Origin: Paracoccaceae bacterium
Lineage (GTDB): Bacteria > Pseudomonadota > Alphaproteobacteria > Rhodobacterales > Rhodobacteraceae
NCBI GenBank assembly: GCA_043561795.1
Contig: CP121316.1
Span: 754,061-818,060, forward strand
DNA length: 64,000 bases
Direction: 5' to 3'
Part shown: positions 11,983-45,199 of the stretch, piece by piece
Layout of the letters: every line of letters starts with the position of its first letter
Position numbering within the stretch: the stretch's first letter is position 1
Program-made: the position numbers and the translations under genes
Notes under the pieces: generated by a model
What the model saw: the letters and a program-made list of their open reading frames with translations, nothing else
Database searches by the model: none
Told to the model about the DNA's origin: nothing

Positions 11983-12048
11983 AATGCTTTTCTCAGGCGC
12001 GGCACTGTGCCATCACAGGACAAACCCATCTGAAAGGCGCGTATCCGC

Positions 12049-12495
12049 ATGCCCATGATCCATATTCTGAACGGCCCCAATCTGAACCTTCTGGGCCATC
12101 GCCAGCCCGAAATCTACGGGCGTGATACGCTGGAAGATATCGCCCGCGCGGCCCAAGCGCTAGGGCAGGATCTGGGGCTGGAGGTGCTGTGCCACCAATC
12201 CAACCATGAAGGCGCAATTGTCGAGATGATCCACGAGGCGCGCGCCACTGCGCAAGGCATCATCATCAACCCCGCCGCCTATAGCCATACATCAGTGGCG
12301 ATTCTGGATGCGCTGAACACATTTGATGGCCCTGTGATAGAGGTGCATATCTCCAACATCCACAAGCGCGAAAGCTTTCGCCATCATTCCTATGTCAGCG
12401 CGCGCGCCAATGGTGTGATTGCGGGCTGCGGCACCGAAGGGTATCTGCTGGCGCTGCGCCATATCGCCAGCCTTTTGCGCACAGGCGCGGCCTAA
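12049..12495 (+). CDS. aroQ: Type II 3-dehydroquinate dehydratase
   Basis: [26 protein letters not shown] and [14 protein letters not shown] motifs. Confidence 0.96.
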
Positions 12496-12628
12496 GACCT
12501 ATAGGGGGGGCCAAATCCGCGCCGCGCTGCCCTATACTGCAAACGGGGAGTCAGACGGCAACAAACGGGCCTTGTCCATGCGCGAGACGATGATCACCAT
12601 GAAAGCTGTCACCAGAGAGAGGGACGAC

Positions 12629-13285
12629 ATGATATTGGTGATAGATGACCACCCGCTTTTTTGTGAAGCCCTGCAAATGACCCTCTCGGATGCGCTGGGG
12701 CTGGCACAGGTGGAAACCGCAAGCTCTCTTGGGGCGGGGCTGGCGGCATTGCGCGGCGGCTTGCAGGCCGATACGATCATTCTGGATCTTAACCTGCCCG
12801 ATGTGGCGGGGCTGGATGGGCTGACGCGGCTGCGCAATGCCGCGCCGGGCGTGCCTGTGATTGTGGTCTCCTCCATGGCAGAGGAACGCATCATTACCGC
12901 CGTTTTGCACGCGGGCGCGGCAGGGTTTGTGCCCAAACACAGCCCGCGAGAGGCCTTTGTCGAGGCCATTCGCGCCGTGGCGCAGGGCGGAACCTATCTG
13001 CCCCAGGGCTATAGCGCCCCCTCGCGCGCGGATGATGACGCCGCCACGCTGGCCGGGCGCAGCGCGGTAGAGCGTCTGGCAGAACTGACCCCGCAACAGG
13101 GCCGCATTCTGGCGCTGGTCTGCGAAGGCTATCTGAACAAGCAAATCGCCTATGAATTGTCGATCAGCGAAACCACAGTGAAGGCACATGTCACGGCGAT
13201 CTTGCGCAAACTGGGCGCGCAAAGCCGCACACAGGCCGTGCGCATTGCCAATTCCGCCAGCTTCGCGCAGATATTGCGCGAGTAG
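12629..13285 (+). CDS. NarL/LuxR-family response regulator (REC + HTH)
   Basis: IDDHPL...LDLNLPD...FVPK receiver domain; LTPQQ...NKQIAYELSISETTVKAHVTAIL LuxR HTH; GAGGGA RBS. Confidence 0.92.
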   Translation: MILVIDDHPLFCEALQMTLSDALGLAQVETASSLGAGLAALRGGLQADTIILDLNLPDVAGLDGLTRLRNAAPGVPVIVVSSMAEERIITAVLHAGAAGFVPKHSPREAFVEAIRAVAQGGTYLPQGYSAPSRADDDAATLAGRSAVERLAELTPQQGRILALVCEGYLNKQIAYELSISETTVKAHVTAILRKLGAQSRTQAVRIANSASFAQILRE

Positions 13286-13448
13286 ATTTCGCCATCCTGA
13301 CGGGGTGCAAGGCCCCAAACCAAAACACGCCGCGACCACCACACAAAGCGCGGAGATTGCCCCCATGCCGCGCAAACCCTTTGCGCATGCCTGCCCTCCT
13401 GCGCTAGGTTTTGGCAATGCACCGCAAAGGGCCAGCGGGAGGGGCTTG

Positions 13449-14651
13449 ATGCAACAGCCAGACGCCTTTATCCGGCGCGCGCAATCAGCGCAGCCCGACA
13501 CAGCGCGCGCCATTGCAGAAATTCTGGCGCAGCTTCCTGCACCGGAAATGGCGCTTGTGATCCTGTTTGTGGGCGAGGGGCATGATCTTTCCATTCTGGA
13601 AACCAGCCTTGCGCCGCTTGCGCAAACCACCCGGATCATCGGCTGCACCACTGCCGGAGAGATTGGCGCAGGCGGCTATCTGGAAGGGCATCTTGTTGCC
13701 CTTGGCCTGCCGCGCAGCCTGTTTCGCGTGGCCACCGGGTATCTGGGAGATTTGCGCAATTTTGACCCCGAACGCGCCCGCGATCTGGCCTTTGAACTGC
13801 GCGCAGAGGTGACATTTTCCACCGCCGATTGGGCCAATGAAGTGGCCTTCCTGCTGTCTGACGGGCTGTCGCTGCGCGAAGATCAGCTTGTCTGGGCCTT
13901 GTCCGAAGCACTGGGCCAAAGCCCGCTTGTGGGCGGATCGGCAGGCGATGGCTTGCGCTTTGGCCAGACATTCGTGCTGCATGGCGCGCGGTTCATGACC
14001 GATGCCGCCGTTCTGGCCGTGCTGCGCACCCCCTGCCGGGTGACGGCATTCCGCTTTGATCACCTTATGCCCACCCAACAGCGCATGGTGGTGACAGATG
14101 CCGACCCCGCGCACCGGCTGGTGCGCGCGATCAATGGCATGCCCGCAGGGCGGGAATATGCGCGCATTCTGGGCAAAGACCCGCAACATCTGTCACCCTT
14201 CATCTTTGCGGCAAATCCTGTGGTTTCCAAAATCGGCGATACCCACCATGTTCTTGCCATTCAGCGGGTGGAACCCGATGGCACCTTGCGCTTCTTTTCC
14301 GCCATAGAAACCGGGCTTGTGCTGCGACTGGCCGAAAGCCGCGATCTGGTGGCCCATCTGGAAAGCGAATTGGCGCGCCTGCGCGCCGATGGGGCCACAC
14401 CGGCAATTCTGGCCTGCGATTGCATCCTGCGCCGGCTGGAGGCCGAGAATAGCCAAAGCCGCCACCGCATTTCCGCTGTGCTGGATCGGCACGGGGTAAC
14501 GGGGTTCAATACCTATGGCGAGCAGTTCAACCTTGTGCATGTTAACCAGACCTTCACGGGCCTTGCCTTCTACCCGCCCGAAGAAGATGCCGAAGGGCTG
14601 GATATCTCTGGCTTTCTGGCCAGTGCGGCAGAGGCGCGCGCAGATGGTTGA
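13449..14651 (+). CDS. FIST_N/FIST_C sensor protein (NosP-like)
   Basis: IIGCTTAGEI, LVGGSAGDG, CDCILRRLE and GFNTYGEQF.VHVNQTFTG motifs characteristic of FIST proteins. Confidence 0.9.
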   Translation: MQQPDAFIRRAQSAQPDTARAIAEILAQLPAPEMALVILFVGEGHDLSILETSLAPLAQTTRIIGCTTAGEIGAGGYLEGHLVALGLPRSLFRVATGYLGDLRNFDPERARDLAFELRAEVTFSTADWANEVAFLLSDGLSLREDQLVWALSEALGQSPLVGGSAGDGLRFGQTFVLHGARFMTDAAVLAVLRTPCRVTAFRFDHLMPTQQRMVVTDADPAHRLVRAINGMPAGREYARILGKDPQHLSPFIFAANPVVSKIGDTHHVLAIQRVEPDGTLRFFSAIETGLVLRLAESRDLVAHLESELARLRADGATPAILACDCILRRLEAENSQSRHRISAVLDRHGVTGFNTYGEQFNLVHVNQTFTGLAFYPPEEDAEGLDISGFLASAAEARADG

Positions 14652-16911
14652 TTCGATCCTGACTGCCGGCCTGTCGCTGGAAGAGGAAAACGCGCGGCTG
14701 CGTGCCATTGTCACCGCGCTGATAGAGCGATCAGAACGCGCGGCCCAAGGCCCCAACCGCCCGGTGGGCCAGCTGAACCATGTGGTTGCGCTGGAACAGC
14801 AAATCCGCACCCGCACCCGCGATCTGGCCGAAACGCTGGACAGGTTGCGCGTGGCCAATGCGCGCCTGTCACAGGCCGAACGCGCCGCCGTGCGCGCGCG
14901 CAACAGCCTTGCCGATGCGTTGGAGGCCATGGGCGAGGGCTTTGCCATGTTCGATGCCAGTGATACCCTGACAATGTGCAATTCCCGCTTCTGCGCCGAT
15001 CTGCCCGATGTGCGCCACCGGATCGGGCCGGGGCTAAGCTTTCGCGATTATGTGCGCATCGTATCGGAAAGCCCGGCGCTGAACCTACCCGATGCCATGG
15101 CCCGCGCCGAATGGGTGCGCAACCGTCTGGAAAGCCACCGCAGGCGCGATGTGAATTTCATGGTGCCGCTGGTGGATGACCAGTGGTTGCAGGTCAGCGA
15201 ACAGCGCATGGTCTCGGGTGGCACGGCTGTCACGCAAACAGATGTGACAGGCATGGTGCGCACCGAACGCGAGGAACGCGCAAAACTGTTGGATGAACAG
15301 GCGCAGATGGTGCGCGCCACGCTGGATCACATGGATCAGGGCGTGCTTATCTTTGATGCCAAAGCGCGCCTTGCGGGCTGGAACCGGCGCTTGCGCGAAT
15401 TATTCTCGCCGCCGGTTGATCTGCTGGCAACGGGCACGCCCTTTGCCGCCCTTCTGAACAATCTGATGCGGCGGCGGCAATTGGGGCGCGGCAATATCCG
15501 CGCCGTTCTGACAGATTGGGTAAACGGCCCGCCCCATCGCCCGCCCCTGACATTGGAAATTGTGCAGGATGAAGGCGCAGTGCTGGAACTTTCGGCGCAG
15601 GCCATGCCGGATTCCGGCTTTGTGATCTCTTTCACCGATCTGACAAAGGAACGCCGCGCCATTGCCGAAATGCACCGCCTGAACGAGACATTGGAAGCAC
15701 GCGTGCGCGCCCGCACGATAGAACTGGAATCCGCCCGCGATGCCGCAGAGCGGGCCAATGCCTCGAAATCGCGGTTTGTGGCTTCGGCCAGTCATGATCT
15801 GTTGCAACCGTTGAACGCGGCCAAGCTGTTTCTGGCCTCGCTGCGCGCGATGGATCAGCCCCCCGCCCAAGCCCGCCTGACAGAGCGGATTGTCAGCGCC
15901 TTCGGCTCTGTCGAGCAGATTCTGGGCGCGCTTCTGGATATCTCGAAATTCGATATCGGCGCGGCGCGGGCGAAACCCGAAACCATCGCACTTGATCCCT
16001 TGCTGGACAGGCTGCGCGAGGAATTTGCCCCCATTGCCCAAAAGCAGGGGCTGGAATTGCGCGTCCTGCCCTGCCGCGCGCATGTGGTGACAGACCCGGT
16101 TTATCTGAAGCGCATCTTGCAAAACCTGCTGTCCAATGCGCTGCGCTACACGCGCAAGGGGCGGGTTTTGCTGGGGGCGCGGGCCAGTGGCGGGGCGGTG
16201 CGGCTGGAAATATGGGATACCGGCCCCGGCATACCCGAAGATAAACAGGCAGAAATTTTTCAGGAATTCACGCGGCTTGATCCCGTGGGGCAAGATGGGG
16301 GCATGGGGCTGGGGCTGGCTATTGTGGAACAGGCTTGCGCGCTGCTCAATCATCCGCTGGCGCTGCGCTCGGAGCTGGGGCGCGGCACGATGTTCAGCGT
16401 CACTGTGCCGCGCGCGCAGCATATCCCGCTTTTGCCCGCCCCCACCCCGCCACGCGAACCGCGCGGCCCGCTGGAGGAAATGCTGGTGCTGGTGGTGGAA
16501 AATGACGCCAATGTGCGCCGCGCCATGATGGGGGTGCTGGAAGATTGGGGCACAAGCCCGATAGAGGCCGCCACCCTGGCCGAGGCAGAGGCCCAGATCG
16601 CAGAACTTGGCGTGCCACCCGATGTGATTTTGGCCGATTACCAGTTGGATGGCGGCGAAACCGGGCTTGCCCTTATCGCCGCGCTGCGCGCGCGGCACGG
16701 GCCTGTGCCTGCGGTTTTGATTACCGCCAATCACAGCCCCGATCTGATACAGACAACAGAAGAGCAGGCGATATTGCTGATGACAAAACCGCTTGCGCTG
16801 CGGCGCTTGCGGCGGGTGTTGCAGCAGATGCCGCTTTATATGGACGCCCGCGCAGGCATGCAAACCGCACGGCGCGGCGACCACAGCTATTGGATTTTGC
16901 CAGAGGGCTAG
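14644..16911 (+). CDS. PAS-containing hybrid histidine kinase/receiver (NahK-like)
   Basis: N-terminal coiled coil (EEENARLRAI), two PAS-like segments, ASHDLLQPL H-box, QNLLSNA, DTGPGI, GLGLAIV and a C-terminal REC domain; overlaps the FIST gene by 8 bp. Confidence 0.9.
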   Translation: MVDSILTAGLSLEEENARLRAIVTALIERSERAAQGPNRPVGQLNHVVALEQQIRTRTRDLAETLDRLRVANARLSQAERAAVRARNSLADALEAMGEGFAMFDASDTLTMCNSRFCADLPDVRHRIGPGLSFRDYVRIVSESPALNLPDAMARAEWVRNRLESHRRRDVNFMVPLVDDQWLQVSEQRMVSGGTAVTQTDVTGMVRTEREERAKLLDEQAQMVRATLDHMDQGVLIFDAKARLAGWNRRLRELFSPPVDLLATGTPFAALLNNLMRRRQLGRGNIRAVLTDWVNGPPHRPPLTLEIVQDEGAVLELSAQAMPDSGFVISFTDLTKERRAIAEMHRLNETLEARVRARTIELESARDAAERANASKSRFVASASHDLLQPLNAAKLFLASLRAMDQPPAQARLTERIVSAFGSVEQILGALLDISKFDIGAARAKPETIALDPLLDRLREEFAPIAQKQGLELRVLPCRAHVVTDPVYLKRILQNLLSNALRYTRKGRVLLGARASGGAVRLEIWDTGPGIPEDKQAEIFQEFTRLDPVGQDGGMGLGLAIVEQACALLNHPLALRSELGRGTMFSVTVPRAQHIPLLPAPTPPREPRGPLEEMLVLVVENDANVRRAMMGVLEDWGTSPIEAATLAEAEAQIAELGVPPDVILADYQLDGGETGLALIAALRARHGPVPAVLITANHSPDLIQTTEEQAILLMTKPLALRRLRRVLQQMPLYMDARAGMQTARRGDHSYWILPEG

Positions 16912-17058
16912 AAAAGCGCGCAGCCCCTGATAATGCGCCAAACCACGCAGCCTTTCGGAGCACCCTTTCAGACGGAGCAAGCTTTTGCCCGCTGCCGAAG
17001 GCTGGAAACTGTCATCAGCACAGGCTATAGCAGGCGCAAACCCGCCCATAACATATAG

Positions 17059-18342
<1,284 letters not shown>

Positions 18343-18352
18343 AACCTTGCAT

Positions 18353-18374
18353 AGGGTGCGCCCCGGCGCACCCT
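18353..18374. terminator. GC-rich hairpin between convergent eno and pheT
   Basis: AGGGTGCG-ccccgg-CGCACCCT; no U-tract; could be a terminator or a REP-like unit. Confidence 0.45.
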
Positions 18375-18387
18375 GCCGCCCTTGCCT

Positions 18388-20469
18388 TTAGCCCGCGCGC
18401 AATGTGCCGCCTGTGGCTTTTTCCACCTTCTCCACAATCTTGCGGCTGATTGCGTCCAGCTCTTCCTCTGTCAAGCTGCGCTCGACCGGTTGCAGCCGCA
18501 CCGAAATGGCCACGGATTTGCGCCCGTCGCCAAATTGCGCCGCAGCCTTTGGCCCGGTGAATTCATCAAATACCTGCACGCCAGCAATCAGCGCCTTGTC
18601 GGCCCCGGCGGCGGCATTGACGATGTTCAGCGCCTCTACCTGCGCATCCAGAATGAAGGCGAAATCACGCTCCACGCTTTGCAGCGCGCTTGTTATCAGC
18701 GGCTGGCGCGTGGTTTTGCGCGCCTTGGGATAGGGCGGGTTTTCCACAAACACGCTAAAGCCCACAACCGGGCCTTTCAGATCATAGGCTTTGATGATCT
18801 TGGGATGCAATTCGCCAAATACTGCCAGCGGCAATTTCGGGCCAAGGCTGATCACCCCTGCCCGCCCCGGATGAAACCAGCCCGGCAAATTGCGCGTGAT
18901 CTGGAATTTTGCAGGCGCGCCAATGGCGGCAAGCACCGCCTCTGCATCGGCTTTGGCATCATAGAGATCAACCGCGCGGCGGCTGGCGTAAGGATCGCGC
19001 GGCGCAGTTGCGCCCACCAATATCCCTGCGGCCTGTATATGCTGCTCTCCCGGCTCTCCGCCGGCAAAGGCGGGGCCAACCTCGAACAGGGCCAGATCGG
19101 CACTGCCACGCGCCTGATTGCGCGCGGCCGCCTGCAACAGGCCCGGCAACAGATCGGGGCGCATATGCGTCATTTCCGATGAAATCGGGTTTTCCAGCCG
19201 CAACGCATCCTGCCCGCCGCCAAAGGCTGTGGCAGAGGCCGCATCTATAAAGCTGTAGCTGACGCATTCATTATAGCCCAGGCCCGCCAGCATCCGCCGC
19301 GCCGCGCGTTCGCGCGTTTGCAGCGGTGTCAGGATCGGGCGGGCAACGCCGGGCATGGGCCGCGCCAGGGGCTTGCCTTCCAGCTTGGTCAGGGACGCAA
19401 TGCGCGCGATTTCTTCTACCAGATCGGCCTCTCCCAGAATATCGGGGCGCCAGCTGGGGGGCTGGGCCTGATCGCCTGTCAGGGCAAAGCCCAAAGCCTC
19501 CAGCGTGGCGCGCTGCGCGGCCTCTGGAACATCCATGCCCACCAGCGCGCGGGTGCGCAGCGGATCAAAGCGGTAGCTGCGCGCGGTATCGGGGATTGCG
19601 CCATCCAGCGCGATATCAGACACCTCGCCGCCGCAGAGTTCCACCACCATGCGCGCGGCCATGTCCAGCTAGGTGAAGAAATTGGTGATATCCACGAGGG
19701 CCGAGATCGGACGCAGCCCAATGGCGCGCAACCGTTTTTGCAACCAATCGGGCGAGGGGCCATTTTTCACCCCCCGGATCACGCGGCCTGCGAAAATGGG
19801 GCAGCCCTTTTCTTTCAGCTCTGGCGCGATGGTCACGCTTATGGGGCACGGGAAACTGCCCTGCACCTGCGCTGCGGCCAAGGGCTTGAGCACGCCCAAG
19901 CCCCGCGCGGCCAGATCGCGCGCAATACCGCGCACGCCCAGCGCATCGGGGCGGTTGGGGGTGATGGCAATTTCGATCACAGGGTCATTAAGCCCCGCGT
20001 AATCGATAAAGCGCATGCCCAAAGGCGCATCATCTGGCAGATCAATAATGCCGTCATGGGCGTCTGACAGCATCAACTCACGCTCGGAGCACAGCATCCC
20101 GTTGCTGGCCTGCCCCCGAATGACACCGGGTTTCAGATCTACCCCGGTGCCGGGAACATGCGTGCCCACGGGCGCGAATACGGCGCGCATGCCCGTGCGG
20201 GCATTGGGTGCGCCGCAGACGACCTGCACCTCTTGGGGCGCGCTGTCGGGGCCGTTGGGCCATGTTTCCACCCGGCACAGGCGCAGGCGGTCTGCGTCGG
20301 GGTGCTGGGCGGCCTCTATCACGCGGGCAATGCGAAACGCGCCCAGAGTTTGAGCGGGATCGCTTACCTCTTCCACCTCCAGCCCCAGATCGGTCAGCGC
20401 CTCTGCGATCTGTTCCAGCGTGGCCTCGGTTTCCAGATGATCCCGTAGCCAGGACAGCGTGAATTTCAT
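18388..20469 (-). pseudogene. pheT: Phenylalanyl-tRNA synthetase beta subunit, interrupted by an in-frame TAG (19671-19669) at an apparent internal deletion
   Basis: MKFTLSWL...TPNRPD...[31 protein letters not shown]...WRPD...ERDFAF in one frame; 693 codon positions versus ~800 aa typical for the family. Confidence 0.9.
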
Positions 20470-20570
20470 GTCATTTCCCCGAATTCGTCTGACTCTGCCG
20501 TGGCGGGCGGCCCGGCCCGAATTTCAGCCCGGCACAGGGCCACCCGCCTTTGCACTGCTATCGCCTACCC

Positions 20571-20980
20571 TTAGCGCGAGCGCGGATCAATATCGTCGTC
20601 TTCATCCTCGTCATCATCATCAGGCAGGTTGAAGAAGCTTTCGGCATCGCTGTAATCGGCGGCCAGGCCGGGCGATCCTGACGCTTGGACAAAGGCGTAT
20701 AGCGCGGGCCACGGCGTTTTTCCTCGCCCTCGGCGGCGGGGTTGTATTTCAGCTTCAGCACATAGCGCGGGTCTTTTTCGCCGCGCTCTATTTCAATGGC
20801 ATCCAGCTGGTTATTGGCAACAGGGTCAAAGCCCTTCACGCCGCCCGCGACATCGCCATCGGCAATGCCCTGCACTTCCAGTTCATGCAGGCCGCAAAAA
20901 TCTGCAATCTGCTTGAAGCTGAGCGTTGTGTTATCAACCAGCCAAACGGCGGTGGCCTTGGGCATCAATGGTTTTGACAT
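20571..20980 (-). pseudogene. DUF1013-family protein with internal deletion and frameshift near 20665
   Basis: N-terminus MSKPLMPKATAVWLVDNTTLSFKQIADFCG...RYTPLSKRQDRPA. After the junction a different frame reads AADYSDAESFFNLPDDDDEDEDDDIDPRSR-stop, an acidic tail that looks like the native C-terminus. Confidence 0.8.
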
Positions 20981-21123
20981 GACATGAACTCCTGTCATAC
21001 GAGCGCAGTGCAATGCGCATGCTTCATCTCGTGCCGGGGCTCCGGCTGCAGGGCGGGCCTGCCATTCCTCGATTTCGGGGATGGTGGGCTTATAGCGCGC
21101 ATGCTGGCAAAGGGAAAGACGAA

Positions 21124-21786
21124 ATGCGCAAAATGATCATGACAGTTGTGGCGCTGGCCGTGCTGGGGGTGGCGGGCTGGGGGCTGTGGCCGCGCTCCAT
21201 ATCACAGGCGGCAGCGCGTGACGGCTATCTGGTGCTGGCCCTGAGCTGGACACCCAGTTGGTGCGCATCTGAGGGCGACAGCCGGGGTGCGGCGCGCTGT
21301 GCGCCGGGGGCCGGAGCGGGCTGGCTGGTGCATGGGCTATGGCCGCAGCACGACAGCGGGGGCTGGCCGGAATTTTGCCCCACAGACCACCCTGCCCCAA
21401 GCTCTGCCAGCTTGCGCGCGCTGGAAGATATCATGGGGGCCGCCGGGCTGGCTGCGCATCAGTGGCGCAAACATGGAAGCTGCGCCAACATGGCCCCGGC
21501 GGAGTATTTCGACCAGACGCGCCGCGCCTTTGCCGCATTGGAGTTCCCCCCAAGCCTGCGCGCCGACCGCGCCGCGCTGCGCGCCCGCCCTGCCGATTTG
21601 CTGGCAGATTTTCGCGCAGCCAATCCAGAATTCGGCCCAGATATGGCCGTGCTCACATGCCGCGCCGGGCGGGCGCAGGAATTGCGCCTTTGCCTGCGCC
21701 ATGATCTGACGCCGCGCCCCTGTGATGACGCCCTTCTGGCCCGTGCCTGCCGTGCGGGGCAGGTGGAATTGCCGGCGTTGCGCTAG
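21124..21786 (+). CDS. Ribonuclease T2-family protein, exported
   Basis: VLALSWTP, HGLWP (CAS I) and HQWRKHGSC (CAS II) motifs; N-terminal signal/TM segment. Confidence 0.9.
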   Translation: MRKMIMTVVALAVLGVAGWGLWPRSISQAAARDGYLVLALSWTPSWCASEGDSRGAARCAPGAGAGWLVHGLWPQHDSGGWPEFCPTDHPAPSSASLRALEDIMGAAGLAAHQWRKHGSCANMAPAEYFDQTRRAFAALEFPPSLRADRAALRARPADLLADFRAANPEFGPDMAVLTCRAGRAQELRLCLRHDLTPRPCDDALLARACRAGQVELPALR

Positions 21787-21873
21787 GACGGCCCCGCCCT
21801 GCCAGATGGCGCGCGCTGTGCTTTGTCTGGGGTCTTGCGCGCGCCTTGGCAAAGCACGCCTGCAACATGCGCC

Positions 21874-24018
21874 CTACCCCTCTGCCGCGCCGGGCGCGAT
21901 GAGCTTTGCAATCGCGCCGTGCAGGCGTTCCAGCTTCAATGGCTTTGTGACACAGCCATCAAAACCCGCATCCAGATAGGATTGCACCTGATGGGTCATG
22001 GCATTGGCGGTAAAGGCAATCGCGGGGCAGCGCGCACGGCCCTGCGCGGCCTCCAGCCTGCGCATTTCACGCAGCAAGGCCACGCCATCCAGCAGCGGCA
22101 TGGAAATATCCAGAATCAACAGATCAAACTGGCTCTCCCGATAGCGTTCAAGGGCGGCGATACCATCATCTGCCTGTGTGACATGCGCGCCCAGCTGGCC
22201 CAGCATCATGCCAAGGATCATCTGGTTTGTGCGGTTATCATCGGCCGCCAGAACGGCGAGCGGCGGCAAAGGTGCCAGCCCGGCAGGGGCAGGGGTTTGC
22301 GGCGCGGCAATGGGGGGTTGTGCGGGAAGGGGCAAGGTAATTGTTACGCTGGTTCCAACCCCCGGAACGCTGTCAATATGCAGCGCGCCCCCCATCATAT
22401 CCGTCAGCCGCCGCACAATTGCCATGCCAAGGCCCGTGCCCCCAAACCGGCGGGTGATCGTGCTATCTGCCTGTGCGAAGGGTTCCAGCACATGCTCTGC
22501 CTGCTGTGCAGTCATGCCAATCCCGCTATCTTGCACATGCAACACAAGCTGTGTCGCATCAGAGGCGGTTATGCCAACACGCACTGCGCCGCTTTGTGTG
22601 AATTTCAGCGCATTGCTGATAAGATTGTGCAAAATCTGCATCAGGCGGTGCAGATCGCCCAGCCGATCAAAGCCGGAAGGGTCTTGCAGCGTGACGGCGA
22701 AAGACAACCGCTTTTCCGAGGCCCGCAGCGTGTGCACTTCTTCTACCCGGCGCGCCAGATCGGCCAACTGAAAAGGAATGATCTCCAGCTCTATCGCATC
22801 GGCCTCGATCTTGGTCATATCCAGCAGATCATTCAGGATATTCATCAGCAATTCGCCAGAATCCATCAGGATCGCAGCCATCTGCTTTTGCGCAGGATCG
22901 GTGATCGCAGTTTGCAGGATTTGCGCTATGCCCAGGATACCGTTCAACGGCGTGCGGATTTCATGGCTCATATTCGCCAGAAAACTGGATTTGGCCTGTG
23001 TTGCGCGATGGGCGGCTTCCAGCGCGGCCTCGCGCGCTTTTTCGGCCTCTACCAGTTGGGTAACATCGGTAATGGCATAGACAATATGGCAGGTGGCGGG
23101 GCATCCGTTCGTTATTGGGGCGGCATTGATGGAAATGTAACGCACCTCATCGGCCAAATGCAGTGCAAGGCGCTGGTTGCGCACCATGGCGCTTCCCCGG
23201 CGCAGCCTGACAAAGGGGTGATCTTCGGGCGCGATGGGACAGTCTGCAAGATCAGTCAGCCGCCAATGGGGCGCATCAAAGCGTTGCCCCAGCAGGCCAG
23301 AAAGCGGCACATCCAGAATGGTTTCGGCGGCCTGATTGGCAAAGATGATCACCCCTTCTGCATCCAGCACAACAAAGCCAGCCGCATCGGTGCTGACAAT
23401 CCCTTGCAAAAAGGCGCGTTCCTTGGCCAATTCCTCTTGCGCGGCATGCATATCCGCAATTGCTTTGCGCCGCGTCAGCACAGTGCGCACCACATCGGCA
23501 AAGGCCCGCAAAAGATAGGTTTCGCCGGGCAGAAAATCGCCCCGCTCTGTTACGCTGTCAAACCCTACAATTCCGAACAGACCAGAATCATCCAGCATCG
23601 GCACCAGCAAAAGAGAGCGGATTTGCTGCGCGGCCAGAATTTCATATTCCATGCTGCCGGGCGCAAAATCGGCTATATCGGCGATGTTCAAAATCTGGCT
23701 GGCAATAAGCGGTGCAAACAGGGCCCCGTAATCGGCCACCCGCAAATCCTGCAACTGGTCTTTCATCGGGCTGATACCCGGTGCGCACCATTCATGGGTG
23801 TTGCTTACCAACGGGCCGGAAACAAGGAAAACATAGGCCCTGTCACGCCCGGCATAGGCCCCAAGCCGGGCCAGACAGTCATCAAGCGCCCAATCCACAT
23901 TGGCACAGTCAGAGGCCAGCAATTTATGGATCAAGGTGACAACAAGCGCCTGAATCTCTGTCAGGCGCTCTTCCACCGCAACTGGCGTATCGACATTGTG
24001 ACTGCGCCCAATTTCCAT
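21874..24018 (-). CDS. Cytoplasmic hybrid histidine kinase (GAF-PAS-HisKA-HATPase-REC)
   Basis: SNTHEWCAPG GAF motif, FLANMSHEIRTPLNG, NLISNALKFT, DSGIGM, GGTGLG and DISMP motifs. The start could be further upstream (ORF open to 24108). Confidence 0.9.
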   Translation of the reverse strand: MEIGRSHNVDTPVAVEERLTEIQALVVTLIHKLLASDCANVDWALDDCLARLGAYAGRDRAYVFLVSGPLVSNTHEWCAPGISPMKDQLQDLRVADYGALFAPLIASQILNIADIADFAPGSMEYEILAAQQIRSLLLVPMLDDSGLFGIVGFDSVTERGDFLPGETYLLRAFADVVRTVLTRRKAIADMHAAQEELAKERAFLQGIVSTDAAGFVVLDAEGVIIFANQAAETILDVPLSGLLGQRFDAPHWRLTDLADCPIAPEDHPFVRLRRGSAMVRNQRLALHLADEVRYISINAAPITNGCPATCHIVYAITDVTQLVEAEKAREAALEAAHRATQAKSSFLANMSHEIRTPLNGILGIAQILQTAITDPAQKQMAAILMDSGELLMNILNDLLDMTKIEADAIELEIIPFQLADLARRVEEVHTLRASEKRLSFAVTLQDPSGFDRLGDLHRLMQILHNLISNALKFTQSGAVRVGITASDATQLVLHVQDSGIGMTAQQAEHVLEPFAQADSTITRRFGGTGLGMAIVRRLTDMMGGALHIDSVPGVGTSVTITLPLPAQPPIAAPQTPAPAGLAPLPPLAVLAADDNRTNQMILGMMLGQLGAHVTQADDGIAALERYRESQFDLLILDISMPLLDGVALLREMRRLEAAQGRARCPAIAFTANAMTHQVQSYLDAGFDGCVTKPLKLERLHGAIAKLIAPGAAEG

Positions 24019-24275
24019 TTTGGCCTTTTGCGTGTTGCCCCGCGCCTGCACCTGTCGCGCAATCGCCCAACGTGCCAGAGCGTGCTGCCCCGCTTGGGAT
24101 ACCGGCAAAAGATTAACTACTCGTAGCCGCGATTTCGTTTTTGCCGGTCAATCTGGGGCAACTGCGGTCGGATCGGGGCTTGCGCCGCGCAACCCCATGA
24201 CTATAACCCGCACCAATTTGCGCAGCGCGTTTTACGCGTGGCTGCGCATGCGCGCAGGTCAGTCAGGGGTCCGTC

Positions 24276-27200
24276 ATGCCGAAAAGAACCGACATTCAAT
24301 CCATCATGATCATCGGGGCGGGGCCAATTGTCATCGGGCAGGCCTGCGAATTTGACTATTCCGGCGCACAAGCCTGCAAGGCGCTGCGCGAAGAGGGATA
24401 CCGGGTCATTCTGGTAAATTCCAACCCAGCAACCATTATGACAGATCCCGGCCTCGCCGATGCCACCTATATCGAGCCGATCACACCCGAGATCGTGGCC
24501 AAGATTATCGAGAAAGAGCGCCCCGATGCCTTGCTGCCCACGATGGGCGGGCAGACCGGGCTGAACACCTCTCTGGCGCTGGCCGATATGGGGGTGCTGG
24601 ACAAATTCGGGGTGGAACTGATTGGCGCCAACCGCGACGCGATCGAGATGGCCGAAGACCGCAAACTGTTCCGCGAAGCGATGGACAGAATCGGGCTGGA
24701 AAACCCCAAAGCCACCATCATCGCCGCGCCAAAGCTGGACAACGGCAAATATGACATCAACGCAGGTGTGGCCGCGGCCATAGAGGCGATTGAATATGTG
24801 GGCCTGCCCGCGATCATCCGCCCCGCCTTTACCCTTGGCGGCACCGGCGGCGGCGTGGCCTATAACCGCGATGATTACGAGCGCATTTGCCGTTCCGGGC
24901 TGGATGCGTCACCCGTGGCGCAAATTCTGGTCGATGAAAGCCTGCTGGGCTGGAAGGAATATGAAATGGAAGTTGTCCGCGACAAAGCGGATAACGCGAT
25001 CATTGTCTGTTCCATTGAAAACGTGGATCCGATGGGCGTGCATACGGGCGATTCGATCACCGTGGCCCCGGCGCTTACCCTGACAGACAAGGAATATCAG
25101 ATCATGCGCAACGGCTCTATTGCAGTGCTGCGCGAGATCGGGGTCGAGACGGGTGGCTCCAACGTGCAATGGGCGATTAATCCAGCCGATGGCCGAATGG
25201 TCGTGATCGAGATGAACCCGCGCGTATCGCGCTCTTCTGCGCTGGCCTCCAAAGCTACGGGCTTTCCGATTGCGAAAATCGCGGCCAAGCTGGCGGTGGG
25301 CTATACGCTGGATGAGTTGGACAATGACATTACCAAAGTCACCCCCGCCAGCTTCGAGCCGACGATAGATTATGTCGTCACCAAAATCCCGCGCTTCGCG
25401 TTCGAGAAATTCCCCAGCTCCGAGCCACATCTCACCACGGCCATGAAATCCGTGGGCGAGGCGATGGCCATTGGCCGCACCTTCCACGAATCCATGCAAA
25501 AGGCGCTGGCCAGCATGGAAACGGGGCTGACGGGCTTTGACGAAATCGCCATTCCCGGCGCGCCAGACCGTGCGGCCATCATAAAGGCCATCAGCGCCCA
25601 GACCCCCGACCGCTTGCGCCTGATTGCCCAAGCCATGCGCGAAGGGCTGTCAGATGATGACATTCAGGCCGCCACCGCCTTTGATCCGTGGTTTCTCTCG
25701 CGTATCCGCGAGATCATGGAGGCCGAGGCAGAGATTCGCGCCAAGGGCCTGCCTGTGACAGCCGAAGGGCTGCGCGCGCTGAAGATGCTGGGCTTTACCG
25801 ATGCCCGCCTTGCCATCCTGACGGGCCGGGATGAAGCACAGGTGCGCCGCGCCCGGCGCAATCTGGGGGTGAATGCCGTCTTCAAGCGCATTGACACCTG
25901 CGCGGCGGAATTCGAGGCCCAGACCCCCTACATGTATTCCACCTATGAAACCCCTGTCATGGGCGATGCGGAATGCGAGGCCCGGCCCTCGGAGCGCAAG
26001 AAAGTGGTTATTCTTGGCGGCGGCCCCAACCGGATTGGCCAAGGGATTGAGTTTGATTATTGCTGCTGCCATGCCTGTTTCGCGCTGACAGATGTTGGCT
26101 ATGAAACCATCATGATCAACTGCAACCCCGAAACGGTTTCAACCGATTATGACACATCCGACCGCCTGTATTTCGAACCCCTGACGCTGGAACATGTGCT
26201 GGAAATTCTGCGCGTGGAACAGGAAGCAGGCACGCTGCATGGCGTGATCGTGCAATTTGGCGGCCAGACGCCTTTGAAACTGGCAAATGCGCTGCAAGAC
26301 GAAGGTATCCCCATTCTGGGCACCTCGCCCGATGCGATTGATCTGGCAGAGGATCGCGAGCGGTTTCAGGCGCTCTTGAATGATCTGGGGCTGAAACAGC
26401 CTGTTAATGGCATTGCCTCTACCCGCGATCAGGCGTTCGAGATTGCGGCGCGGGTGGGCTATCCGCTGGTGATCCGCCCCTCTTATGTTCTGGGGGGCCG
26501 CGCGATGGAGATTGTGCGCGATGATGCCCATCTGGAACGCTATATCCGCGATGCCGTGCAAGTTTCGGGCAAAAACCCGGTGCTGCTGGACAGCTATCTT
26601 GTGGGCGCGGTGGAAGTGGATGTGGATGCGCTGTGTGATGGCGAGGCCGTGCATGTGGCAGGCATCATGCAGCACATAGAGGAAGCGGGCGTGCATTCGG
26701 GTGATAGCGCGTGTTCGCTGCCCCCCTATTCGCTTGGCCCGGATATGATTGCGGAACTGCGCGTGCAAACCGAAGCACTGGCGCGCGGCCTGAATGTGGT
26801 CGGGCTGATGAATGTGCAATTCGCCATCAAGGATGGCGTGATCTATGTTCTGGAAGTGAATCCGCGCGCCTCTCGGACTGTGCCCTTTGTGGCCAAGGCC
26901 ACCGACAGCGCGATTGCCAGCATTGCCGCGCGGCTGATGGCAGGGGAAAAGCTGTCAAACTTCCCCATGCGCGCGCCGATCAAGGCCGATGTCGCGCCAT
27001 CCGAACCCATGCCAATGGGCGATCCCATGACACTGGCAGACCCGCAAACCCCGTGGTTCTCGGTCAAGGAAGCGGTGCTGCCTTTCGCGCGCTTCCCCGG
27101 TGTAGATACGCTGCTGGGGCCAGAAATGCGCTCTACCGGCGAGGTGATGGGCTGGGCGCGCAATTTCGCCCGCGCCTTTTACAAGGCGCAGCTTGGCGCT

Positions 27201-27617
27201 GGCGTGACATTGCCAGAATCGGGCCGCGTGTTCCTGTCGATCAAGGATTACGACAAAGGCCCGCAGATGGTGGAAGCAGCGCAAACGCTGGTTGATCTGG
27301 GCTTTGTCATTGTGGCCACACGCGGCACGGCAGATTGGCTGAAGGGCGAGGGCGTTGCCTGCGAGGTGGTGAACAAGGTCTATGAAGGGCGGCCCAATAT
27401 TGTCGATCTGCTGAAAAGCGGCGAGATTGCCATGGTGCTGAACACCACCGAAGGGGCACAGGCCATAGAGGATAGCCGCGAAATCCGCTCTGTCGCGCTG
27501 TATGACAAGATCCCCTATTATACCACTGCCGCAGGCAGCCATGCCGCCGTTATGGCGATCAAGGCGCGCGAAGAAGGCGAAATCGGCGTGCGCGCCTTGC
27601 AGCACGCAGCCGATTAA
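24276..27617 (+). CDS. carB: Carbamoyl-phosphate synthase large subunit
   Basis: MPKRTDI...[53 protein letters not shown] and C-terminal MGS domain; 1113 aa. Confidence 0.98.
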
Positions 27618-27640
27618 GCCCACCGTCATACTGTGTTGCG

Positions 27641-27666
27641 AAAGCCCCGCTCAGGCGGGGCTTTTT
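27641..27666 (+). terminator. Rho-independent terminator after carB
   Basis: AAAGCCCCGC-tcag-GCGGGGCTTT followed by a T-run. Confidence 0.85.
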
Positions 27667-27708
27667 CGTGCGGCATTTGCCCGCAGCGGGGGATTGTCGA
27701 TTTCTAGT

Positions 27709-27729
27709 TGCGAACGATTATCATTTGCA
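27709..27729. promoter_or_regulatory. Fur/Mur-like operator upstream of the metal ABC transporter
   Basis: 21-bp imperfect palindrome TGCGAACGATTATCATTTGCA (8 of 10 positions per arm), 37 bp upstream of the ATG. Confidence 0.55.
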
Positions 27730-27765
27730 TATAAATGCGGGCAACACACAGAAAAAGGAGTCTCC

Positions 27766-28737
27766 ATGCCCCGCTTCGCCCTCCCGACGATCGCCCTTGG
27801 CGCTACCCTTGCCCTCGGCGCCCCGCTGCATGCCCAAGAACAGCCGCTCAATGTGCTGGCCACAGTCGCCATGATTGCCGATGTGGCGCAAAATGTGGCG
27901 GGCGAATGCGCCACCGTCACCACATTGATCGGCGCAGGCACAGACCCACATGACTATTCCGCCACCCCCGGCGATGTGCGCAAAATATCCGAGGCAGAGC
28001 TTATCCTTTATGTGGATCGCGCCCTTGAAGAACGGCTGGCCGATGTGCTGGACAGCTTTCGCGACCGCACGCCCACAGTGGGGCTGGTTGCCGCCAGCTT
28101 CCCCCCGGAAGCCACGCTGCAAGACCCGGAAGACGCCGGCAGGGTTGATCCGCATCTGTGGATGGATGCCAGCCGCTGGGCGCGTATTGCCCCTGTGATT
28201 GCCGATGCAATCGCCGCGCAGCGCCCTGCATGCGCAGAGACTTTGCAAGCGAATACGGCCGGTTATGTCGCAGCGCTGGACGCACTGCATGACTGGATTG
28301 GCGCGGCCATCGCCTCTATCCCCGAAGGCCAGCGCCTGCTGGTCACGGCCCATGATGCCTTTTACTATTTCGCAGATGCCTATGGAATAGAGGCCTCAGA
28401 GGCGATTGAAGGGATTTCCACGGCCTCTGAGGCCAGTATCGCAGATATCCGCGATGTGGCAGATTTCGTGATTGCGCGCGGTGTGCCGGCGGTATTTGTG
28501 GAAACCACCATCAACCCCCGCACAATGGAAGCACTGGTGCAAGAGGTGCAAAGCCGCGGTCAGGATGTTGGCATCGGGGGCGCGCTATTTTCTGATGCGA
28601 TGGGTGCAGAGGGCACGCCAGAGGCCAGCTACATTGGCATGATGCGCGCCAATACCACTGTCATCACCCTGGCCCTTGGGGGCAGCCTGCCCGATTGGCC
28701 GGAAATCCTGGCCGCGTATGGCGATGGCTCGCCCTAA
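27766..28737 (+). CDS. Mn/Zn/Fe ABC transporter substrate-binding protein (TroA/SitA-like, cluster A-I)
   Basis: DPHDY, DPHLWMD, TAHDAFYYF and FSDAMG metal-ligand motifs; signal peptide; AAGGAG RBS. Confidence 0.92.
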   Translation: MPRFALPTIALGATLALGAPLHAQEQPLNVLATVAMIADVAQNVAGECATVTTLIGAGTDPHDYSATPGDVRKISEAELILYVDRALEERLADVLDSFRDRTPTVGLVAASFPPEATLQDPEDAGRVDPHLWMDASRWARIAPVIADAIAAQRPACAETLQANTAGYVAALDALHDWIGAAIASIPEGQRLLVTAHDAFYYFADAYGIEASEAIEGISTASEASIADIRDVADFVIARGVPAVFVETTINPRTMEALVQEVQSRGQDVGIGGALFSDAMGAEGTPEASYIGMMRANTTVITLALGGSLPDWPEILAAYGDGSP

Positions 28738-44320: not shown

Positions 44321-45199
44321 CTACACCCGGACAGGGGCAACCGGGGTCATGCGTTCGGCATATAGCCGCACCAGCTGGGCAAGCTGCCCTTCGCCGGGGC
44401 AAGAGGGGATAGACGAAATCGCCCCGCTGAGGATATCTTGCAAATGCTTGATCGCGCCTTGCACGCCATATTCTTCCACCGCAGAGGGGCGCTTGTTCAG
44501 CACATCTTGCCCGGCAGGCTTGCCAAGCGCCGCTTCGTCATACAGCGCATCGCGCAGATCATCGGCCACCTGAAACGCCTCGCCAATGCGCGCGCCCAGT
44601 TCCACCCATGGCTCTGGCTCATGGCCCGCGGCCTGCGCGCCCATCTGGGTCGCGGCCACGAACAGCGCCGCCGTTTTGGAACGGTGATAGGCGCCCAGAT
44701 CGACCTTGCTTTCACTCTCCCAGCCCTGCCCCGCTCAAATGCCATGCGGCATGCCAGTATGACGGGCCAAAAGCCGCGTCAGGCGCAGCGCGCGGGCGGC
44801 ATCGGTATCGGGAACATCGGCCAGCAGATCAAAGGCGGCAATGATCAGGCTATCGCCTGTCAGAACGGCCAAGGGTTCGGAATAGGCCAGATGCACAGTT
44901 GGCTTGCCGCGCCGGAAATCGGCATTGTCAAAAGCGGGCAAATCATCATGCACAAGGCTGGCGCAATGGATCAGCTCCAGCGCCGTGGCTGCACGATCTG
45001 ACAGATCGGGCCTGTCATCACCACAGGCTTTGGCCACGGAGAGGCAAATCGTGGGGCGAATCCGCGCGCCACCGGGGGTGACAGCATAATTCAGCGCCGA
45101 GGCCAGCCGCGCAGGCACGCTGCCCTCTGGCGTATCGGCCCCCTGTGCGCGCGCTATGGCCTGTGTCATGGCTCTGTCGATACGTTTGCTCAGCTCCAT
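44321..45199 (-). pseudogene. crtE: Geranylgeranyl diphosphate synthase with in-frame TGA at 44737-44735
   Basis: PGGARIRP and SLVHDDLPAFD (FARM), then GMPHGI-TGA-AGQGWESE, and the same frame continues through KTAALF and FQVADDLRD (SARM) to TAG 44321; 292 codon positions. Confidence 0.92.

Follow-up and report, generated by a model that had tools for sequence, protein, structure and literature searches.

A probable collapsed assembly gap behind the interrupted pheT of a Roseinatronobacter genome

In the stretch of DNA analysed here (64,000 nucleotides of a Paracoccaceae genome, hereafter the window), pheT, encoding the beta subunit of phenylalanyl-tRNA synthetase (PheRS), is interrupted by an in-frame TAG and lacks 342 nt from the core of its B3/B4 editing domain. 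We infer a technical cause: with a probability of about 0.92, the apparent deletion and its TAG are a collapsed assembly gap and not a biological deletion. This reading is preferred because losses throughout the genome are one-sided, blind to selection and spaced ~16 kb apart, and because they come with single spurious bases and switches of haplotype. The organism's true pheT would then be the ordinary 807-aa gene of every conspecific sequence. The split is almost certainly no real biological feature, and its value lies in the warning that it gives on the assembly.

The interrupted gene and the sequence it lacks

Across the interruption, the minus strand of pheT reads ATC ACC AAT TTC TTC ACC TAG CTG GAC ATG GCC GCG CGC. 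The frame stays open before and after the TAG, and a hypothetical read-through product would have 693 aa; an ATG at 19662-19660, 6 nt (two codons) past the TAG, opens the 3′ ORF. The features in the window are:

19669..20469, minus strand: 5′ piece of pheT, 266 aa ending in NFFT and the stop; carries B1, tRNA_bind (B2) and the first quarter of B3_4
19669..19671, minus strand: in-frame TAG at the pheT joint (T 19671, A 19670, G 19669)
18388..19662, minus strand: 3′ piece of pheT, 424 aa starting MAARMVVELCGG; carries B5, the CLM domain (B6-B7) and FDX-ACB (B8)
19670..19671, no strand: joint 1; base 19670 stands where relatives have 343 letters, so that 342 nt net of the B3/B4 core are lost

The 266-aa ORF matches only positions 2-45 of the 174 in B3_4 (PF03483) and holds no complete editing domain. 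In the 424-aa ORF, B5 (PF03484), B6-B7 (PF17759) and FDX-ACB (PF03147) all score above their cut-offs. Together the two pieces cover positions 1-260 and 376-798 of TIGR00472 (pheT_bact) with the TAG between them, so that no continuous ORF spans the 798 positions; their combined score is 483 bits against a cut-off of 402.65. The domain order B1-B2-(B3/B4)-B5-B6/7-B8 is kept as in the beta subunits of bacterial (alpha-beta)2 PheRS (E. coli 3PCO, T. thermophilus 1PYS); unlike in E. coli PheRS beta, the equivalents of residues 258-372 are missing as assembled, with a stop instead. Apart from the joint, the gene is a typical member of the bacterial pheT family. It is the only copy that a whole-genome profile search recovers, and HMM, tblastn and blastn searches of the genome found neither a second pheT nor a relocated B3/B4 segment.

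The 343 letters that stand for base 19670 were seen in four sequencing runs (X1, X5, X6, X24) and four contigs (L015, L120, L121, L122). Conspecific DNA on four contigs reads CACC T/TCGAT...GGAGG/GG CTG (slashes at the edges of the lost stretch), compared with CACC T-A-G CTG in the window. At the protein level, residues F267-G381 of the 807-aa PheT (114 codons) are swapped for one stop, and the conspecific proteins continue as NFFT-F-D(Q/L)NRPLHVF...RFERGVDPAFTLEG-LDMAARM. The T of the TAG is the first base of Phe TTC and the G is the last base of Gly GGG; the A occurs in no relative.

A gap-free alignment places the lost stretch at residues 261-369 of E. coli PheRS beta (3PCO/7N8Y) and 256-367 of T. 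thermophilus beta. Much of this had been anticipated by the first-pass annotation, made from the letters of the window alone: its minus-strand sequence with the TAG is correct letter for letter, its ORF sizes (266 aa, 424 aa from the ATG at 19662) and read-through length of 693 hold, and its estimate of 110-115 missing codons brackets the 114 measured on conspecific contigs (342 nt net). It had built the TAG from the TA of a Tyr codon and the G of a Gly codon; the glycine G stands and the tyrosine falls, as the conspecifics have Phe TTC and the A matches neither side. It had also placed the His and Glu region of the editing site in the lost part, and both positions, in the motifs RPLH and FLES, lie inside the missing stretch in the E. 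coli alignment. We take the RPLH histidine to be E. coli 265 and the FLES glutamate to be E. coli 334, both editing-site positions.

One biological option raised early was read-through or recoding of the amber codon, which would yield a PheRS beta of 693 aa with no editing domain. The open frame on either side of the TAG would allow this. None of the 48 tRNAs in the genome has a CUA anticodon, throughout the genome TAG terminates normal genes at operon junctions with no sign of avoidance as a stop, the lesion is not specific to pheT and the evidence for an artefact given below applies here too. Read-through thus finds no support and has next to no chance of being correct.

Intact relatives, a second joint and a foreign haplotype

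Matches were found in 29 other relatives' genomes, 18 of them from the same genus, and these carry full-length pheT (TIGR00472 1-798), a few being clipped by contig ends. Judged by how cluster members and related records are named, the genus is Roseinatronobacter. The 90% cluster of the N-terminal ORF contains several metagenome proteins of 807 aa that are ~99% identical to both halves, and the pheT site is intact on contigs that span it in pond, sediment and algal samples. The missing sequence is present in all conspecific contigs from independent samples, which are ~99% identical to this genome; the editing domain is intact in every conspecific and congeneric sequence, and no defect is shared by the lineage. 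Two checks proposed by the first-pass annotation, a comparison with conspecific assemblies and a search for a second pheT, therefore returned intact conspecific contigs throughout and a single-copy gene.

A strain in pond samples (runs X1-X4, X24-X26; Logan contigs SRR17593459/496/516) belongs to the same species, and the conspecifics live in cyanobacterial pond consortia. Over window positions 12000-28000, divergence from the pond strain is 0.5-3.5% depending on the segment, a mosaic pattern that is typical of recombining populations. A switch of divergence at a joint is therefore no proof of misassembly when taken alone.

About 1 kb upstream of the pheT joint, in the neighbouring TrcR gene, lies a second one:

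20665..20666, no strand: joint 2; 367 nt missing in the TrcR (PF06242) gene, with base 20665 mismatching every relative
20558..21013, minus strand: frameshifted TrcR remnant of 151 aa (258 aa in conspecifics), from the ORF and the conspecific alignment
19671..20665, no strand: block of a different haplotype, 995 bp, with ~30 mismatches (3.7%) to conspecific contigs

The 367 nt of the TrcR gene are present in all four conspecific contigs, and their loss, unlike that in pheT, is out of frame. Outside the block, the window shows 0-5 mismatches per 300 nt (~1% or less) to the 14-kb contig L120 and three others. With the closest intact allele as reference, 30 mismatches fall in the 799 nt 5′ of joint 1 but only four in the 1,282 nt 3′ of it. 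Bases 19670 and 20665 each disagree with all relatives. The context of pheT is unlike that of a simple deletion, as a 1-kb piece of foreign haplotype sits between two holes.

These observations bear on the reading in which a real, strain-specific 342-nt deletion and a point change left a free-living alphaproteobacterium with an active, editing-less PheRS, either as 266-aa and 424-aa chains made by termination-reinitiation or through a functional C-terminal B5-B8 part alone. Such a split beta subunit had also been offered by the first-pass annotation. Because the lost stretch preserves the frame and the next ATG comes two codons after the TAG, a split protein made by reinitiation is physically conceivable; the C-terminal ORF of the genome's only pheT retains intact B5, CLM and anticodon-binding FDX-ACB domains; and loss of editing has precedents, as editing-defective E. 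coli pheT point mutants are tolerated as long as neither m-Tyr nor oxidative stress is present (PMC4066437), and PheRS is naturally editing-deficient in Mycoplasma (PMC3553970). However, the cut falls off the domain borders and leaves 45 of 174 B3_4 positions dangling, no Shine-Dalgarno sequence is visible by eye ahead of the ATG of the 424-aa ORF, all conspecifics are intact, and a second joint lies 1 kb off with the foreign-haplotype block between. The pheT joint is moreover one among ~250 similar ones, and the frameshifts in atpD, obg and aroC could not be rescued in this way. Nor would a real deletion in pheT account for the remaining ~250 joints or for the adjacent one in TrcR. With a lesion that is not specific to pheT, the split subunit is left unsupported, and we give a real deletion a slim chance.

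Elsewhere in the window, positions 13636-15762 are 14-25% diverged from L120; small indels occur at several places, and the window has 227 nt more than L120. The flanks are ~1% or less diverged, and the conspecific has sensor-kinase/PAS genes there. Either an allelic replacement or a further patched piece could account for this segment.

Recurrence of joints across the genome

Similar joints were sought by comparison with a same-genus genome, G009. In a first census, 252 ORFs from 325 kb of G009 were compared with this genome, and 240 kb of genes were aligned. About 20 G009 ORFs are split here, and the internal indels of at least 17 nt are all losses in this genome: 17 nt in aroC, 34 nt in an unnamed gene, 53 nt in clpA, 214 nt in atpD, ~544 nt in another unnamed gene and ~778 nt in gltB. 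The G009 versions span the curated models in full, and no second copies of the affected genes were found in this genome. In clpA, four runs have 54 letters compared with one base here, and divergence rises from 0.75% to 6.7% at the joint; in gltB, environmental conspecific contigs have 793 letters compared with 15 bases here. The genes atpD, aroC and clpA are single-copy and frameshifted, and gltB is also broken.

A second, independent census covered 400 kb of G009 at the DNA level, with 374 kb in collinear alignment at 93-94% identity. It yielded 24 joints at which G009 has 50-1,223 nt and this genome has -14 to +9 nt, with exactly 1 nt in place at eight of them; in the same 374 kb, only five events run in the opposite direction. 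The rate of about one joint per 16 kb extrapolates to about 250 in the genome. The joints of this census lie inside secA, obg, nrdJ, pdhB, a parB-like gene and other genes; obg and pdhB are frameshifted and single-copy, and secA and nrdJ have lost 56-58 aa in frame. Loss lengths were measured for 28 events, four of the 24 anchored alignments being left out, and 10 are multiples of three. This is the chance level, with no in-frame excess; a signature of selection through in-frame enrichment was rejected, and the losses are therefore unfiltered by selection. The joints in genome coordinates are:

3786073: atpD
3635782: obg
1427096: secA
3748521: nrdJ
3665200: pdhB
1302599: aroC
1967368-1967382: gltB
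3780289: clpA
975437-975500: further joint
581219: further joint

At the listed housekeeping joints 17-780 nt are lacking, mostly with a frameshift, in single-copy genes. Replication slippage or illegitimate recombination was considered and set aside, as the joints show no consistent microhomology and mismatched bases are frequent at them. The joint at prfA, encoding RF1, lies upstream of the start codon and was not counted as a coding lesion. A reverse control, looking for ORFs of this genome broken in G009, is not independent since it sees the same indels from the other side, and a directional count of mid-size indels was used instead. A reference-free scan for in-frame stops with coding sequence on either side recovered crtE, missed pheT and returned mostly normal operon junctions; it was dropped as too insensitive.

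No free-living cell could bear such damage to its sole atpD, obg, aroC and pheT while sequences in nature that are 99% identical to it are intact. The collapsed gap would have arisen as follows. The single-contig genome would be a pseudo-molecule of abutted pieces averaging ~16 kb; whatever had failed to assemble between neighbouring pieces would have been left out, neither filled nor marked with N, often with one spurious base remaining at the joint. The 995 bp bounded by joints 19670/19671 and 20665/20666 would stem from the haplotype of a slightly different strain; one gap would have swallowed the B3/B4 coding sequence and the other a part of the TrcR gene. The preserved frame of the pheT loss and the resulting TAG would be coincidence. 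The first-pass annotation had ranked an assembly gap or artefact as likeliest, a view that the second gap, the haplotype block and the ~250 joints now support. Its expectation of an N-gap at pheT fails, as the genome is without any N and the gaps appear to have been collapsed, often to one base.

The joints are like collapsed or abutted scaffold gaps in drafts released as closed pseudo-molecules: sequence held by all relatives, including near-identical ones, is absent here, and the joints recur genome-wide in one direction, every ~16 kb whatever the gene or frame, with spurious bases, haplotype changes and broken essential genes. They are unlike marked scaffold gaps, as the record is one closed contig with no N run or gap feature here. 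Counting against an artefact, this contig of 3,969,919 bp is closed, without N and 99.57% complete. Sequencing runs that matched the surroundings of the joint (801 bp), the joint itself (91 bp) or DNA close by (9.9 kb) came from related environmental samples only. No run among them carries the joint; none holds above 0.56 of the words, and the best DNA run reaches 0.27-0.28. The pheT locus is absent from X23 and X27, both single-organism runs, and X34 represents a distant relative.

Real and recent genome decay, such as might accompany dependence on a host or a consortium, with pheT as one casualty, would account for the many genes affected and for the deletional bias, and it fits the unique nonsense change in crtE (below) and the occurrence of conspecifics in cyanobacterial pond consortia. 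However, single-copy obg, pheT and the gene for ATP synthase beta are indispensable, the last in a respiratory or phototrophic alphaproteobacterium, and there is no bias towards in-frame losses or dispensable genes. The flanks are at least 99% identical to intact conspecifics, which leaves too little time for ~250 deletions, and a technical origin is suggested by the lone odd base at many joints and by the switches of haplotype. The chance that we allow for decay is slimmer still than that for a real deletion confined to this strain's pheT.

A further anomaly is seen at mnmE (genome around 1272346-1273275 and the 1277830-1280241 region), which aligns from residue 142 on, its N-terminal third being missing or replaced; nearby, ~2 kb of additional sequence in this genome interrupts an ORF of 167 aa. 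An insertion or rearrangement is possible in this region.

Known PheRS enzymes and the use of this genome

If the lesion were real, the enzyme would be like Mycoplasma PheRS and the E. coli mutants in failing to hydrolyse Tyr- or m-Tyr-tRNAPhe. Those enzymes have a full-length beta subunit with lineage-conserved substitutions in the editing site (PMC3553970; PMC4066437), whereas here three quarters of the domain are absent, in one assembly only. The pheT found here does not belong to the naturally editing-deficient class, since the defect is common to no relative. Monomeric mitochondrial PheRS has no editing domain, and aminoacylation without B3/B4 is possible in principle (PMC3275996); this enzyme is a single chain of different origin with no beta subunit and, unlike the pieces found here, is not a split protein.

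Taken at face value, the window would describe the first free-living bacterium without a PheRS proofreading domain, a false claim that the census of joints averts. Calls of pseudogenes, split genes, domain losses or premature stops from this genome are suspect until reads show otherwise; the genes under suspicion are atpD, obg, secA, nrdJ, gltB, clpA, aroC, pdhB, TrcR and probably crtE with its TGA. The genome appears to be the species representative, and its gene content will mislead comparative analyses.

The crtE stop lies on the minus strand at window positions 44735-44737 (genome 798795), where the environmental relatives in runs X1, X5 and X6 read TGC (Cys). Compared with these three, the in-frame TGA is a substitution unique to this assembly, and it probably represents a consensus error rather than a pigment mutant.
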